Source of the DNA: a virus
IMG/VR virus record: IMGVR_UViG_3300044788_000028
Span: 1 to 54,321 of that record
Length of the DNA: 54,321 nt
Strand: one strand, 5' to 3'
Each line of letters starts with the position of its first letter. Positions within the stretch are counted from its first letter, which is position 1. Below the pieces are notes generated by a model. It did no database searches. It was not told where the DNA came from and saw only the letters and a program-made list of their open reading frames with translations. Of this stretch, positions 13,654-25,936 are shown piece by piece. The translations under genes were made by a program, and so were the position numbers.

Positions 13654-14096
13654 GGTTGTGGTCTCCCGTGGATGATGGTTGTCATGACGCGCTTCCGCTC
13701 TCGCCCGGCTCGCACGACCTGCACGAAGCGGATCGGGTGCAGCAGCGCGGTGACGGCGATGTACGTCCAACGCCGGGGGCGCGACCACATGCTGATCGGG
13801 GCATGGCGCCAGCACCACGTATCCGCCATCGTACCGTCCATGCGTTGCTTGAAGGGAAACTGCCGACGCCGGGGGTCCAGCGTCGACCACTTGCGGTAAT
13901 ACTTGGACTCCCGCCCGCACACGTCGCACGGATACTTGGACTTCGCCGCACGGGCGTTGCACGCGTCCGCGTGCGCTTGCGCATCCCGCGCCTGCCGGTG
14001 CATGTCCGTGAAGGACAGTCCGCGCTTGTGCAGCGCCCGCGCGACCTTGGTCATGTGCTGTGTGCGCTTGCGATGGATCTTGCGTTTGAGGCTCAT
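13650..14096 (-). CDS. Hypothetical basic protein
   Basis: 148 aa from the ATG at 14096 (ATGA overlaps at both ends). Confidence 0.5.
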   Translation of the reverse strand: MSLKRKIHRKRTQHMTKVARALHKRGLSFTDMHRQARDAQAHADACNARAAKSKYPCDVCGRESKYYRKWSTLDPRRRQFPFKQRMDGTMADTWCWRHAPISMWSRPRRWTYIAVTALLHPIRFVQVVRAGRERKRVMTTIIHGRPQP

Positions 14097-14482
14097 CGGC
14101 AGAGGTGGTTGAGGGCAGCGTCGAGTGAGGCAAAACACCGGGCATGGTAGAGCACCCACGGGGAGGCACTCTTGTGCGTGACGCCCCATGCGATCACCTG
14201 TTTGCCTTGGCGGTGTGCCAAGGCGATCTCCATGGCCGTGCCCCACGACGGGCGCTCGCACCGTGCCAAGACCACGTCGCATCCTTGGATGTCGATCAGG
14301 TCACCTTCCACGCACTGTGCGACGGTGAGGTTCGTCCAGACCTCCACGCTGCGGTAGTCGCGGGTCATGGGGTTGCGCACCGTGTGCCCGGCCTGCCTGA
14401 GACGGAAGCTGGCGAGCCGCCGCCAGTCGTACGCCTCCTTGTCGCTGCACCCAGCGATGGCCCCGGCGAGGTAGATGATCAT
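14093..14482 (-). CDS. Nucleoside 2-deoxyribosyltransferase-like protein
   Basis: 129 aa. MIIYLAGAI..., D(x)nCDVVLA and SWGTAMEIALA match the general pattern of the deoxyribosyltransferase / dNMP N-glycosidase fold (from memory). Confidence 0.6.
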   Translation of the reverse strand: MIIYLAGAIAGCSDKEAYDWRRLASFRLRQAGHTVRNPMTRDYRSVEVWTNLTVAQCVEGDLIDIQGCDVVLARCERPSWGTAMEIALAHRQGKQVIAWGVTHKSASPWVLYHARCFASLDAALNHLCR

Positions 14483-14632
14483 CTAGTCCCGGGGGTCCAT
14501 GAGGGTGGGGCGGTGTCCGTTCTGTGGTGGGGGGAGCGGCTTCCCCGTGTCCATGCGGTGCAGCATGTTGCTCACGCCCATACCCGCGAGCATGCCCAAA
14601 CAGAACATGACCAACAGGATCAGGTAGATCAT
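14483..14632 (-). CDS. Small membrane protein (49 aa)
   Basis: Hand translation gives MIYLILLVMFCLGMLAGMGVSNMLHRMDTGKPLPPPQNGHRPTLMDPRD. ATGA overlap upstream; its stop abuts the next ATG. Confidence 0.5.
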   Translation of the reverse strand: MIYLILLVMFCLGMLAGMGVSNMLHRMDTGKPLPPPQNGHRPTLMDPRD

Positions 14633-15417
14633 TTCGCCTCCTCGAGTTCAGCGATCATGGATGCGCACTCCGCGTAGCCGGCGGTATCGGTGAGATTGTC
14701 GCGCTTGTGCTGATGCGCCTCGCGCGATAGCTTGACGGCGATCATCATCAGCGTAGCGAGGCGCGGCGGGATGTCGGGCAACCGCTCTTCCCCTTCGACC
14801 AGTTCATCCTTGCACAACTGCGCACGGGTGACCAGCGCAAGCCCGCACCGCTTGAGCCACCGCTCGAGCAGGGCAGACCACATACGCCCCGTCGCGCGGT
14901 AGTCGTGGATCGGGTGCCCGTAGTCGTTCCCTCGGTTGCCGTGGACGAGGCGTTGGGCTTCCTCGAGGATGGTTTCGGGCTGCACGGCACGCACGGGCGC
15001 CAGCAGGTCCGCGATCGCCGGCAGCTTCACCGTGGTCACGTTGCCGGGGTAACGGGCGGCGAACACCGGCTTCCCCAGCAGCACACAAAGGATCAACTCC
15101 ACACGCGTTCCCTTACTGCGCTCCCACCCGTCGAGCACCACCGTCGCGTCGGCCTTGGCCAACTCCGCCACGTCCTCAGCAAACATCAGCGGGAGCAGTG
15201 GGTCGCCGTAGTGGCATTTCGTCACGCCGGGGACGAAGGGGGTGTCATGTACCCGCTCCCATACGCGGGTGTTGGTGTCGAACGGGGTGATCGCCTCGTG
15301 TCCCCACGCGCGCCACGCCGCTTGCGCGTCGTTGAACGCGGGGAAGTTGTCCTGCGCGATTCCGTCCATGGGTCCTGCCACATACACACGCATTTTAGTT
15401 GTACCGTCGTGACTCAT
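14629..15417 (-). CDS. DUF4406-like (deoxyribosyltransferase-like) domain fused to a DUF6378-like domain
   Basis: The N-terminal half (MRVYVAGPMDG...NFPAFN...GHEAITP...GWERSKGTRVEL) fits DUF4406. The C-terminal half (HGNRGNDYGHP...MMIAVKLSREAH...DNLTDTAGYA) fits the phage DUF6378 pattern. Both assignments are from memory. Confidence 0.55.
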   Translation of the reverse strand: MSHDGTTKMRVYVAGPMDGIAQDNFPAFNDAQAAWRAWGHEAITPFDTNTRVWERVHDTPFVPGVTKCHYGDPLLPLMFAEDVAELAKADATVVLDGWERSKGTRVELILCVLLGKPVFAARYPGNVTTVKLPAIADLLAPVRAVQPETILEEAQRLVHGNRGNDYGHPIHDYRATGRMWSALLERWLKRCGLALVTRAQLCKDELVEGEERLPDIPPRLATLMMIAVKLSREAHQHKRDNLTDTAGYAECASMIAELEEAK

Positions 15418-24116: not shown

Positions 24117-24117
24117 T

Positions 24118-25074
24118 TTATTTTGCGTCCCGACACAAGCCAATGAATTCAGCGCGGGCGGCAGCATCGGTCTGCAATACCCCCCGCACAGCTGAGGTAG
24201 TCGTCAAGCTGCCGTGTATCTTCACACCGCGAGAAGACATGCACATATGTGCTGCACGCACCAGTACGCCCACACCAAGCGGAGCAACGTGCGTGACAAG
24301 CGCGTCGGCAATCTGTGTGGTCATACGCTCCTGCACTTGCAACCGCCGAGAAAAAAGGTCCACGAGGCGGGCCAGCTTCGACAATCCCACGATTTTCCCG
24401 TTGGGGATATATCCGACGTGCGCCACCCCATGGATGGGGGCGAGGTGGTGCTCACAGTAGCTCACGACCGGAATGTTGTGTACGATCACCATCTGATTGT
24501 AGTCGGCGCTGCCGTCCGCGAACGACTTGAGCACGTCCTTCGGGTCTTGCCCGTACCCACTCCCCCACTCGCGCCACGCCTTGATGACGCGCGCCGGCGT
24601 CTCCCGCAGTCCTTCTCGGGTGGGGTCGTCGCCGATGTATTGTATCAGGCGGGTCACGATGTCGTGCGCGCTGTTGTCGTTGCCCGCTTCCTCTACCTCC
24701 CACGGGAACACCAGCCACGTCCCGTGCGGGTAGGTCCCTTCTACGATGTCGCAACCCGCCGGGACCTTCTGGAGCAGGGCTACGAAGTGGGCGCCCCGAT
24801 ACTTTTCGTAGTAGCGTAGACGCGTGGCGCCTGAGTCAATCAGGTCGTCCACAAACACATCCGCGGCGTCCGGGTCGTCCGTCATGGTCGCGAAGACGTT
24901 TTCGTTCCGGAACGCCGCCATGACCAGCGCTGCCGCCGCGATCCCGCCGCGCGGGATGCCGTAGAGCTTCAGGTGCTTGGTGCGCAGGGTGGGCAGGTCG
25001 AAGGTACGCACCACACGCTCCGCACAGTCCTGCAACTCCCGCAGGGTGAGCATAACCATGTTAGGCATGCGCAC
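24118..25074 (-). CDS. folE: Fusion protein: Gpt-like purine phosphoribosyltransferase domain plus GTP cyclohydrolase I
   Basis: N-terminal half: YGIPRGGIAAAALV, PRPP loop VFVDDLIDSGATR, AHFVALLQKVPAG and TWLVFPWE. C-terminal half: SYCEHHLAPIHG, GKIVGLSKLARLV and RRLQVQERMT (FolE). The start is GTG 25074 or ATG 25068. Confidence 0.8.
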   Translation of the reverse strand: MRMPNMVMLTLRELQDCAERVVRTFDLPTLRTKHLKLYGIPRGGIAAAALVMAAFRNENVFATMTDDPDAADVFVDDLIDSGATRLRYYEKYRGAHFVALLQKVPAGCDIVEGTYPHGTWLVFPWEVEEAGNDNSAHDIVTRLIQYIGDDPTREGLRETPARVIKAWREWGSGYGQDPKDVLKSFADGSADYNQMVIVHNIPVVSYCEHHLAPIHGVAHVGYIPNGKIVGLSKLARLVDLFSRRLQVQERMTTQIADALVTHVAPLGVGVLVRAAHMCMSSRGVKIHGSLTTTSAVRGVLQTDAAARAEFIGLCRDAK

Positions 25075-25936
25075 CGTCCGCTTGCCTGTCGGTACGAAGG
25101 AAGACGTGGAGACCCGCTACCCACGGGCTCAGGTATCCATCTTGCGCGTCCGCCTTCAGGTACTCGAGGGCACCGCGCAACGCCTCGGGATGGTAGTTGT
25201 TGGTCGTAGGCAGTGCCATCACTCCTTCTGCCGCCGCACGCAGCACCAGCGGGTCGGGGAGATCCGCGTCCACGAACCCCTGCGCCCGTAGGAGGGTCGC
25301 GTGGTCGTGCCCGGTGGGCGGGTACGCCCCGTCATACGCGGTGTGGGTGTACGCGAGGGCGCTGTACGCACCGGGGGTGGCACACGCCAGCCGCACCGTT
25401 TGCGCCTTGGAGTGGAACATCAGCGGAGTGTGGATACGGAACACCCCGTCACGCAGTCCCAGCGCCTTGGTGATGGCGTGCTCCTGTGCCACCACGAACT
25501 CGAGGCGGCAGTCCGGATAGTTGGCGTTATCTGCTTCGCACACCCCGGTGATCAGGTCGTAGCAGTCCAGTGCCACGGCACGGTTCGCGGCCAACGTCAG
25601 GAAGAAGGCGTTCCGCATGGGCACGAACGTCAACTCGACACGGTCGCCGATGACAGTCGCCATCTGTTGAGCGTCCGCGTATTGCTCAAGGACCTGCGTG
25701 GGGTCGGTGAGCGGGCTGCGGCTGCGCAGGACACCGGGCACGCCGACACTTTGTACGTCAACCCCAGCGCGCGCGGCCACGACGGACGCGGCGTCAAGCT
25801 CTCGACTGTGCCGCTGTCCGTAGTTGACGACCAGCGCATGGACCGGGGAGAAGCGGGACAGCGCCCAATACAAGCAGGTGGTGCTATCCTGCCCACCCGA
25901 TAGCACGACGAGGGCGGGAGACTGGTCCTTTGTCAT
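25061..25936 (-). CDS. queC: 7-cyano-7-deazaguanine synthase-like protein lacking the Zn-Cys cluster, with a C-terminal extension
   Basis: ALVVLSGGQDSTTCLYWAL (PP-loop), NYGQRHSREL, ITGVCEADNANYPDCRLEFV. Where E. coli QueC has CYNG...CGHCAACNLR, this protein reads AYDGAYPPTGHDHATLLRAQGF. ATG at 25936 (ATGA overlap). Confidence 0.8.
   Translation of the reverse strand: MTKDQSPALVVLSGGQDSTTCLYWALSRFSPVHALVVNYGQRHSRELDAASVVAARAGVDVQSVGVPGVLRSRSPLTDPTQVLEQYADAQQMATVIGDRVELTFVPMRNAFFLTLAANRAVALDCYDLITGVCEADNANYPDCRLEFVVAQEHAITKALGLRDGVFRIHTPLMFHSKAQTVRLACATPGAYSALAYTHTAYDGAYPPTGHDHATLLRAQGFVDADLPDPLVLRAAAEGVMALPTTNNYHPEALRGALEYLKADAQDGYLSPWVAGLHVFLRTDRQADGAHA

Follow-up and report, generated by a model that had tools for sequence, protein, structure and literature searches.

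A predicted DpdA1-type 7-deazaguanine DNA modification system within the replication module of an uncultured siphophage-like virus, and a candidate guanine-salvage domain fused to its FolE

Introduction

Between positions 14,093 and 25,936 of IMG/VR virus record IMGVR_UViG_3300044788_000028 (54,321 nucleotides, analyzed over its whole length and referred to here as the window), genes for 7-deazaguanine synthesis are interleaved with genes for DNA replication and nucleotide metabolism. The question raised by this locus is which modified base the virus might place in its DNA, and whether that base would be exchanged into finished DNA or enter partly at the level of nucleotides. A preliminary description, made from the sequence alone, recognized a complete route from guanosine triphosphate (GTP) to 7-cyano-7-deazaguanine (preQ0) together with a DpdA-family transglycosylase, regarded the company kept by these genes as unusual, and suggested that part of the modification may be handled at the nucleoside or nucleotide level. 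We propose, with a probability of roughly three in four, that the region encodes a DpdA1-type 7-deazaguanine DNA modification system set within the replication module, which would produce the deoxynucleoside of preQ0 (dPreQ0) in phage DNA after replication and to which we add a proposal of guanine salvage by a Gpt-like domain; that proposal, taken by itself, is considerably more tentative.

The identity of positions 1-127 with positions 54195-54321, 127 nucleotides at both ends, indicates that the metagenome contig was circularly assembled and that the genome, at ~54.2 kb (about 54,194 bp), is complete. The minus strand carries every credible gene, and the guanine-plus-cytosine (GC) content of the window is ~64%. 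Genes for a major head protein, portal, large terminase, tape measure, and J-like tail protein are present together with replication genes for a primase, three helicases, an exonuclease, and the family A DNA polymerase PolA, and from this content the virus can be described as siphophage-like. At the nucleotide level the 12-kb region gave zero megablast matches in 50,697 phage records, and a scan of IMG/VR with DpdA peptide patterns returned no relative; look-ups of proteins of the window by exact sequence gave no record either. The closest relatives found are two uncultured contigs, L003 (SRR29078153) and L001 (GCA_040384165.1, JAWVHB010001164.1). We regard the genome as a divergent, high-GC lineage of the known phage DpdA1/preQ0 system.

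Predicted pathway and modified base

FolE, QueD, QueE, and QueC, together with DpdA, are all encoded at 19.2-25.9 kb on the minus strand, within the order queC-folE-queD-dpdA-orf-clamp-nudix-queE-polA:

25061..25939, minus strand: QueC, 7-cyano-7-deazaguanine synthase, with the start taken as the ATG at 25939
24118..25074, minus strand: Gpt-like-FolE fusion, with the Gpt-like domain at residues ~1-130 and GTP cyclohydrolase I at residues 131-315
23206..23742, minus strand: QueD, 6-carboxytetrahydropterin synthase (PF01242, E=2e-26)
22322..23209, minus strand: DpdA, predicted DpdA1-like 7-deazaguanine DNA transglycosylase, 295 aa (phrog_887, E=5e-49)
19261..20040, minus strand: QueE, 7-carboxy-7-deazaguanine synthase, a radical S-adenosylmethionine (SAM) enzyme (TIGR03365, 277 bits against a cut-off of 206; phrog_2076, E=3e-39)

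All five score at or above curated thresholds and keep their catalytic motifs, which bears out the complete GTP-to-preQ0 route with a DpdA-family enzyme read earlier from the sequence. The FolE part of the fusion (residues 131-315) reaches 207 bits against a cut-off of 181.6 for TIGR00063, matches PF01227 at E=1e-68, and keeps the CEHH and HMCM motifs; QueE carries the CX3CX2C cluster motif as CDYRCSWC; and the CxxxHGH signature of QueD is present as CRNVHGH. The DpdL variant of QueD has the motif LxxxHRHxF (PMC10516641), and a reading of this QueD as a DpdL decarboxylase was ruled out, the CxxxHGH motif being intact and LxxxHRHxF missing.

QueC matches PF06508 (E=2e-46), keeps the PP-loop SGGQDS, and passes the equivalog threshold of TIGR00364 barely, at 150.7 bits against 150.3. 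The four zinc-ligand cysteines of structure 2pg3 are all replaced (by A, T, D, and T), and the protein belongs to a zinc-less subtype with a C-terminal extension of ~70 aa, recognizable by the signature HTAYDGxYPP-TGxDHATLLRA...PDPLVLRA. This subtype is common to L001, L003, Pseudomonas phage Iggy, RHEph04, and a Stenotrophomonas phage; the window's QueC is 55% identical to that of Iggy.

Genes that would alter preQ0 further were sought by Pfam scans of ~40 open reading frames (ORFs) covering the non-structural half of the genome. These gave no glutamine amidotransferase (Gat) domain, no ArcS, and no formyl- or methyltransferase. The only trace of QueF was a sub-threshold QueF-like match within FolE itself, and the queuosine enzymes QueA and QueG were not found. 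Partners of the bacterial Dpd system (dpdA-K), namely the DpdB ATPase, DpdC, and restriction components, were likewise not among the scanned ORFs. The earlier failure to see QueF, Gat, ArcS, or dpdB- or dpdC-like genes is thereby reproduced with profile hidden Markov models (HMMs), none of these scoring above threshold.

FolE, QueD, QueE, and QueC along with DpdA have been reported as the minimal set that yields dPreQ0, a QueC without a Gat domain being the combination concerned, and dPreQ0 has been measured in the DNA of Escherichia phage CAjan (PMC6884629). In Iggy DNA, liquid chromatography-tandem mass spectrometry (LC-MS/MS) found dPreQ0 as the sole deazaguanine, at ~17% of deoxyguanosine (dG) (PMC10484667). 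Because the QueC subtype is that of Iggy, no tailoring gene was found, and the published five-gene rule applies, dPreQ0 is most likely the modified base predicted by this gene set, in agreement with what had been named as the simplest prediction.

DpdA as a predicted DNA transglycosylase

The start codon of dpdA, read directly, is a GTG at 23209 that overlaps the stop codon of queD as GTGA. Its product shares 32% identity with the DpdA of CAjan (E=1e-41) and 33% with that of Iggy (E=8e-42), and it is at most 53% identical to anything in a collection of 5.8 billion proteins. Residues D58, D94, H175, and D194 are invariant in 45 homologues, as they are in a set of 7, and stand in the motifs DSGAFS, LDxIGD, VHGFG, and VDSSSW. 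They probably correspond to Asp95, Asp130, His181, and Asp256 of Salmonella Montevideo DpdA, in which an aspartate acts as general acid/base, an aspartate and a histidine recognize the base, and a further aspartate is the nucleophile (PMC10164549).

The protein has no match to PF01702 (tRNA-guanine transglycosylase, TGT) or to any NCBIfam model, and phmmer against PDB sequences returned nothing. It lacks the CxCxxC...H zinc motif, with no conserved cysteine in the C-terminal region, and, where bacterial Tgt proteins have ~370-390 aa, a Pfam TGT domain, and a structural zinc site, it has 295 aa and neither of the latter. An AlphaFold (AF2) model of high confidence (predicted local distance difference test, pLDDT, 93.3) finds its best PDB matches among tRNA-guanine transglycosylases (E=4e-6, template modeling (TM) score 0.55-0.59), with which it has the fold alone in common. 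Its best matches among viral models are phage proteins of the DpdA type, labeled "queuine tRNA-ribosyltransferase" (E=1e-16); the proteins of nt-1 (DpdA2, E=1.6e-5) and phiST (DpdA3, E=5e-4) show weaker structural similarity. As there is no TGT-family match, the homology is to the DpdA of CAjan and Iggy, and the closest structures are phage DpdA-type proteins, sequence and model together identify the enzyme as a predicted DpdA1-like DNA transglycosylase and not a tRNA TGT. The subfamily check advised in the preliminary description, which would have counted a grouping with tRNA-specific enzymes as contrary evidence, thus places it with phage DpdA.

A Gpt-like domain fused to FolE

The first ~130 residues of the fusion protein are Gpt-like, as had been noted before. 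They match the xanthine phosphoribosyltransferase (XPRT) model NF006613 at E=2.5e-7, with a score of 30 bits against an equivalog cut-off of 138, and phrog_8995 at E=2.8e-8. Searched against the PDB, a profile built from five sequences of the domain finds E. coli and Yersinia structures of xanthine-guanine phosphoribosyltransferase (XGPRT) or XPRT, aligned along almost their whole length (E=1e-9 to 2e-8), and BLASTP against E. coli Gpt aligns the region from the phosphoribosyl pyrophosphate (PRPP) loop through TWxxxPW. Conserved features are a PRGG motif, the PRPP loop VFVDDLIDSGAT, Lys103, and TWxxxPWE; R42, G43, G44, D76, D77, D80, S81, G82, T84, K103, and W120 are invariant. Presumably the loop holds PRPP, the RGG motif binds pyrophosphate (PPi), and the lysine and tryptophan contact the purine; literature searches on the roles of these Gpt residues yielded no functional data.

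In the phage collection the domain was matched 12 times, each time within a gene whose only annotation is GTP cyclohydrolase. Of the 318 proteins that match it in the large protein collection, the best 120 include 59 that also carry PF01227. The fusion stands amid queC, queD, and queE with a DpdA homologue in each of the eight contexts examined (the window, L001, L003, Vibrio phage VpKK5, Stenotrophomonas phage vB_SM_ytsc_ply2008005c, L009, L016, and L017). Stand-alone homologues of this small phosphoribosyltransferase (PRT), of 141-156 aa, occur as well, one of them between queD and folE (L013, 8001-8471) on a 97-kb contig with queC and a 444-aa TGT-like gene. The term "phosphoribosyl" is absent from the main papers on the system (PMC10516641, PMC6884629, PMC10484667), and DpdA appeared together with a phosphoribosyltransferase in the literature searched only in work on tubercidin clusters (bioRxiv 10.64898/2026.04.15.718813). 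Among the neighboring elements, the Gpt-like domain is the only one truly linked to the pathway; it is recurrent and apparently undescribed.

Replication genes beside dpdA

Three features of the replication module follow on from dpdA:

22185..22325, minus strand: small ORF of 46 aa between dpdA and the clamp gene, with high GC content at third codon positions (GC3)
21178..22188, minus strand: sliding-clamp-like DNA polymerase processivity factor (phrog_947, E=7e-30)
16807..18840, minus strand: PolA, family A DNA polymerase with a 3'-5' exonuclease domain (PF00476, E=2e-47)

The clamp has a homologue in the processivity factor of CAjan (21% identity, E=1e-18), and PolA is 70-71% identical to the PolA of L001 and L003. 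In PolA, the closest isolates, at ~36% identity, are siphophages with genomes of ~60 kb infecting Pseudomonas, Bordetella, Stenotrophomonas, and Pelagibacter. One layout around dpdA is common to CAjan, Iggy, RHEph04, VpKK5, and Stenotrophomonas phage vB_SM_ytsc_ply2008005c: the processivity factor and then PolA come after it, as a rule with a small intervening ORF, and the que genes lie directly upstream of it; the neighborhood of dpdA, small ORF, clamp, and polA recurs in several metagenomic relatives. Clusters for 7-deazaguanine synthesis are known to adjoin polymerase genes, and the Queuovirinae-type order queE-queC-queD-folE-dpdA beside them is conserved (PMC10484667). In the window that order is altered, queE being displaced downstream of the clamp and NUDIX genes, and the adjacency to clamp and PolA is retained. 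The clamp and PolA are the phage's replisome genes, which stand beside dpdA in all related phages, so that their presence, taken earlier as part of what was unusual about the locus, turns out to be standard.

Two further readings were considered for these genes. The best NCBIfam model for PolA is DpoZ (NF038380), at 339 bits against a cut-off of 500, and no PurZ or adenylosuccinate-synthetase-like protein was seen among the scanned ORFs; a Z-genome (aminoadenine) reading by way of DpoZ and PurZ was rejected on both counts. A small ORF occupies the position after dpdA also in L001, L003, L009, Iggy, and CAjan, and the idea of one conserved protein there was dropped, as similarity in alignments is confined to the nearest relatives.

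Accessory nucleotide genes

The remaining genes named in the preliminary description were also confirmed by HMM searches, all of them, with polA, the clamp, and the Gpt-FolE fusion, on the minus strand:

20702..21181, minus strand: NUDIX hydrolase (PF00293, E=4e-9)
14629..15369, minus strand: fusion of DUF4406 (nucleoside 2-deoxyribosyltransferase (NDT) fold) and DUF6378, 246 aa (PF14359 and PF19905)
14093..14482, minus strand: small NDT-superfamily protein, 129 aa (PF05014, 32.1 bits against a cut-off of 28.8; PF14359, 32.3 against 22)

The NUDIX protein has only weak, non-specific NCBIfam matches (NudG, MutT). The NDT-like protein shows a glutamate at the catalytic position in a marginal, non-significant alignment to Rcl/DNPH1 (E=0.3), and its sequence does not separate a nucleoside 2-deoxyribosyltransferase from a deoxynucleoside monophosphate (dNMP) N-glycosidase. 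The extent of the fusion, 246 aa, is taken from a 100%-identical database entry (P0241). In its AF2 model (pLDDT 84) the N-terminal domain weakly resembles NDT and the cytidine monophosphate (CMP) N-glycosidases BcmB and BlsM. The DUF6378 domain had no structural match in Foldseek and only spurious ubiquitin matches in a profile search of the PDB; phmmer with the fusion against PDB sequences gave nothing. Some mycobacteriophage records label DUF6378 homologues as MazG-like pyrophosphatase, for which neither the PDB profile search nor Foldseek gave a supporting match, and literature searches on DUF4406 and DUF6378 returned no functional data.

Among the neighborhoods of DpdA phages compared, the NDT-like gene occurs in L001 and L003 only and the DUF4406-DUF6378 fusion and the NUDIX gene in L003 only; none of the three was seen in the other DpdA phages examined. 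Homologues of DUF4406 and DUF6378 occur in 894 phage records, 672 of them from Mycobacterium phages, and both domains are present in 120 of the 120 matches to the fusion listed from metagenomes, each match representing one 90%-identity cluster. The nearest fusion outside the relatives (49% identity) is encoded on a phage contig alongside DNA methyltransferases, and no que or dpdA gene lies within 10 kb of it. Because these genes are confined to the nearest relatives and belong to families that many phages without que genes carry, they lend no specific support to a nucleotide-level route, and we regard them as lineage-specific accessories of nucleotide metabolism outside the pathway. The suggestion of nucleoside- or nucleotide-level handling is thus largely unsupported.

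Endonuclease VII genes and other features of the genome

Five genes for Endonuclease VII-type proteins, which the preliminary description did not mention, lie within the interval, and a sixth copy lies outside it:

16412..16810, minus strand: gene 1, downstream of polA (PF02945, E=3e-22; GC3 0.49, against 0.83 for PolA)
18831..19322, minus strand: gene 2, between queE and polA (PF02945, E=2e-20; GC3 0.50)
20034..20543, minus strand: gene 3, between the NUDIX gene and queE (PF02945, E=3e-24; GC3 0.54)
23739..24167, minus strand: gene 4, between folE and queD (PF02945, E=2e-24; GC3 0.50)
25933..26361, minus strand: gene 5, directly upstream of queC (PF02945, E=1e-19; GC3 0.51)
~4161-4532, minus strand: sixth copy, a paralogue outside the cluster

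The paralogues are 36-47% identical to one another, their GC3 is 0.49-0.54 against 0.75-0.88 for their neighbors, and the five within the cluster occupy ~2.3 of an 11.8-kb interval. No Endonuclease VII gene (PF02945) is recorded in the gene lists of the syntenic L001 and L003. There, queE abuts polA and folE abuts queD, leaving the junctions of genes 2 and 4 empty, no counterpart of gene 5 stands upstream of queC, and other small ORFs take the place of gene 1; at the junction of gene 3, the NUDIX gene and queE adjoin in L003. These genes are probably free-standing, homing-type mobile insertions at gene junctions, to judge from their composition and placement, and the module would then be a hotspot for selfish elements. 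The ATG of gene 1, read directly, overlaps the stop codon of polA as ATGA; this overlap (16807-16810) and that of dpdA with queD (23206-23209) suggest translational coupling that includes an inserted mobile gene. Between the NUDIX gene and gene 3 lies an ORF of 102 aa (20455-20763) with native-like GC3 (0.76), no family match, and no homologue in L001-L003; as the NUDIX gene abuts queE in L003, this ORF belongs to the inserted segment.

Upstream of gene 5, a Lys/Ala-rich protein of 221 aa without family match (26358-27023) stands between UvrD and queC, and L001 and L003 have a counterpart of 48% identity in the corresponding place. The head-gene region contains, beside the sixth Endonuclease VII copy, a protein with an SPFH/Band 7 domain (3586-4203; PF01145, E=2.5e-16). 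Two neighboring genes at 34611-36323, with the primase on one side and a helicase on the other, match two Pfam families named after phage Pam3, namely Pam3 phage gp34-like (E=3e-52) and Pam3 gp33-like, DUF7307 (E=5e-22).

Across the whole window several palindromes are strongly rarer than expected under a maximal-order Markov model. The observed and expected counts are 1 and 16.8 for AAGCTT, 0 and 12.8 for ACCGGT, 0 and 7.4 for AGATCT, 5 and 28.9 for CTGCAG, 4 and 25 for AGCGCT, 7 and 27.2 for CCATGG, 0 and 9.8 for TTAA, and 1 and 14.4 for AATT. This scarcity suggests avoidance of restriction sites on top of any base modification.

Discussion

The system that we propose could operate as follows. 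FolE, QueD, QueE, and QueC would convert host GTP into the free base preQ0. After replication, DpdA would excise a subset of the guanines in phage DNA and insert preQ0 in their place by a TGT-like double displacement, with one aspartate as nucleophile and another as general acid/base, and the resulting dPreQ0-containing DNA would resist host restriction. Such a timing accords with the argument that all known 7-deazaguanine DNA modifications are post-replicative (PMC10516641). DpdA catalyzes the exchange of guanine (PMC10164549), and free guanine is therefore both its product and a competitor. It can be hypothesized that the Gpt-like domain joins the guanine freed by DpdA, one for every base inserted, to PRPP and yields guanosine monophosphate (GMP); this may remove a competing substrate of DpdA and, through host Gmk and Ndk, refill the GTP pool used by FolE. 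A guanine-recycling step coupled to DpdA would not have been described before, and we put it forward as a conceivable function to which we give odds clearly below even.

The same domain could be read differently. Phosphoribosylation of preQ0 or of 7-carboxy-7-deazaguanine (CDG) fits less well than guanine salvage with a domain attached to the first pathway enzyme and with the occurrence of DpdA in every context. It would be the opening step of a nucleotide-level route, in which the NUDIX, NDT-like, and DUF4406-DUF6378 proteins process the resulting compound and some of it enters DNA as a deoxynucleoside triphosphate (dNTP) through PolA, besides the exchange by DpdA. The genuine linkage of the PRT domain to que clusters speaks for such a route, as do the co-occurrence of NDT-fold proteins and a NUDIX protein in one module, the membership of PolA in the same broad group of phage PolA proteins as DpoZ, and the presence of a PRT (PF00156) and a PF00293 (NUDIX) enzyme in tubercidin-type clusters (bioRxiv 10.64898/2026.04.15.718813). 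Yet DpdA is intact wherever the fusion occurs, neither a phage kinase for nucleosides or nucleotides nor a ribonucleotide reductase was found among the scanned ORFs, and the NDT-like, DUF-fusion, and NUDIX genes are missing from most DpdA phages, variable even among the closest relatives, and drawn from families abundant in phages without que genes. The PRT is moreover joined to the first enzyme and not to the last, and the literature favors post-replicative insertion (PMC10516641). We consider the route quite unlikely for this phage, and its most specific form, with the Gpt-like domain acting on preQ0 or CDG, the NUDIX and NDT-fold proteins processing the product, and PolA incorporating a 7-deazaguanine nucleotide alongside DpdA exchange, distinctly improbable.

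A different final base and a role in tRNA modification of the host call for similar weighing. A zinc-less QueC that stops at the amide, or a shift in DpdA specificity, would lead to the 7-amido- or 7-carboxy-7-deazaguanine deoxynucleoside (dADG or dCDG), and dADG had been considered earlier for just this atypical QueC. The loss of the four zinc-ligand cysteines and the C-terminal extension are compatible with it, a "QueC*" has been put forward as an ADG synthase in some phages, and DpdA specificity shifts between subfamilies (PMC10516641). What weakens this reading is that Iggy, with dPreQ0 as the only deazaguanine in its DNA, has the same QueC subtype (55% identity); QueC also exceeds its curated equivalog threshold, if barely, and the transglycosylase is DpdA1-like, the DpdA1 enzymes tested so far inserting preQ0 (PMC10516641). 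An end product other than dPreQ0 accordingly appears unlikely. That the que genes serve host queuosine as auxiliary metabolism, with phage DNA left unmodified, would agree with the database label of the transglycosylase homologues as queuine tRNA-ribosyltransferase. The size of the window's enzyme, its lack of Pfam TGT, NCBIfam, and zinc-motif matches, the fact that its CAjan and Iggy homologues modify DNA, and the lack of QueF, QueA, and QueG among the scanned ORFs all run the other way and make this explanation scarcely credible.

Several observations nonetheless weigh against DpdA-mediated dPreQ0 formation with guanine salvage as we propose it. The modified base and its level are predictions from a metagenome contig, and the gene order departs from the canonical queE-queC-queD-folE-dpdA. 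Iggy's host has its own QueC, so the dPreQ0 of Iggy is no proof that the zinc-less subtype completes the nitrile step. For the salvage proposal in particular, the phage domain lacks ~17 residues of the Gpt segment that joins the RGG helix to the PRPP loop, which makes catalytic competence putative, and a stand-alone copy of the PRT occurs on a phage contig without nearby que genes (L011, 8001-8426). In toyocamycin clusters a phosphoribosyltransferase acts on a 7-deazapurine base. Such an activity on 7-deazapurine bases is described for tubercidin-type clusters (bioRxiv 10.64898/2026.04.15.718813), and preQ0 or CDG may accordingly be the substrate of the phage domain.

Modification of phage DNA with 7-deazaguanines is a known means of evading restriction and some clustered regularly interspaced short palindromic repeat (CRISPR) nucleases. 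Should the guanine freed by DpdA be recycled or removed by the Gpt-like domain, the domain would represent an accessory step that has not been recognized. Guanine recycling could then help to explain why modification levels differ between phages and might improve heterologous systems for DNA modification.

Comparison with known systems

Of the characterized phages, CAjan (Seuratvirus, Queuovirinae) shares the five enzymes, a QueC without Gat domain, and the succession of dpdA, small ORF, processivity factor, and PolA. It differs in the order queE-queC-(yhhQ)-queD-folE-dpdA, in a canonical QueC of ~240 aa, in a FolE of 196 aa without PRT domain, and in a module without NUDIX, NDT, or Endonuclease VII genes. 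Iggy (Iggyvirus), in which dPreQ0 lies at GA motifs (PMC10484667), shares the zinc-less, extended QueC and the layout dpdA-small ORF-clamp-x-polA, whereas its FolE (207 aa) lacks the PRT domain, queE is upstream of queC, and Endonuclease VII, NDT, and NUDIX genes are missing from the neighborhood examined.

The Gpt-like-FolE fusion itself is found in VpKK5 (Queuovirinae; 300 aa) and Stenotrophomonas phage vB_SM_ytsc_ply2008005c (297 aa), annotated only as GTP cyclohydrolase and followed by dpdA, clamp, and polA. Both phages have the canonical gene order, PolA and DpdA proteins that are ~35% and 31-38% identical to those of the window, and, over the stretch examined, neighborhoods without NDT-like, DUF-fusion, NUDIX, or Endonuclease VII genes; the QueC of VpKK5 keeps its zinc-ligand cysteines. 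Much closer are L003 and L001, with the shared arrangement UvrD-x-queC-(Gpt)folE-queD-dpdA-small ORF-clamp-(NUDIX)-queE-polA ... NDT-like and identities to the window of 70-71% for PolA, 74-79% for UvrD, and 50-53% for DpdA, though L001 is without the NUDIX gene and the DUF4406-DUF6378 fusion.

Outside phages, the Gpt-like domain can be compared with E. coli Gpt (PDB 1A95 and related structures), which it matches by profile at E ~1e-8 to 1e-9 over residues 4-141, with the RGG motif, the DDxxDxGxT PRPP loop, the lysine of FAKPAG (QKVPAG in the phage domain), and TWxxxPW in common; the phage domain differs in that the segment linking the RGG helix to the PRPP loop is ~17 residues shorter, and in its fusion to FolE. 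The tubercidin and toyocamycin clusters of actinomycetes likewise combine FolE, QueD, and QueE, with or without QueC, and a phosphoribosyltransferase, and those for tubercidin also have a PF00293 enzyme. They make free nucleoside antibiotics and are without dpdA, whereas the window has DpdA, in the setting of a phage replication module.

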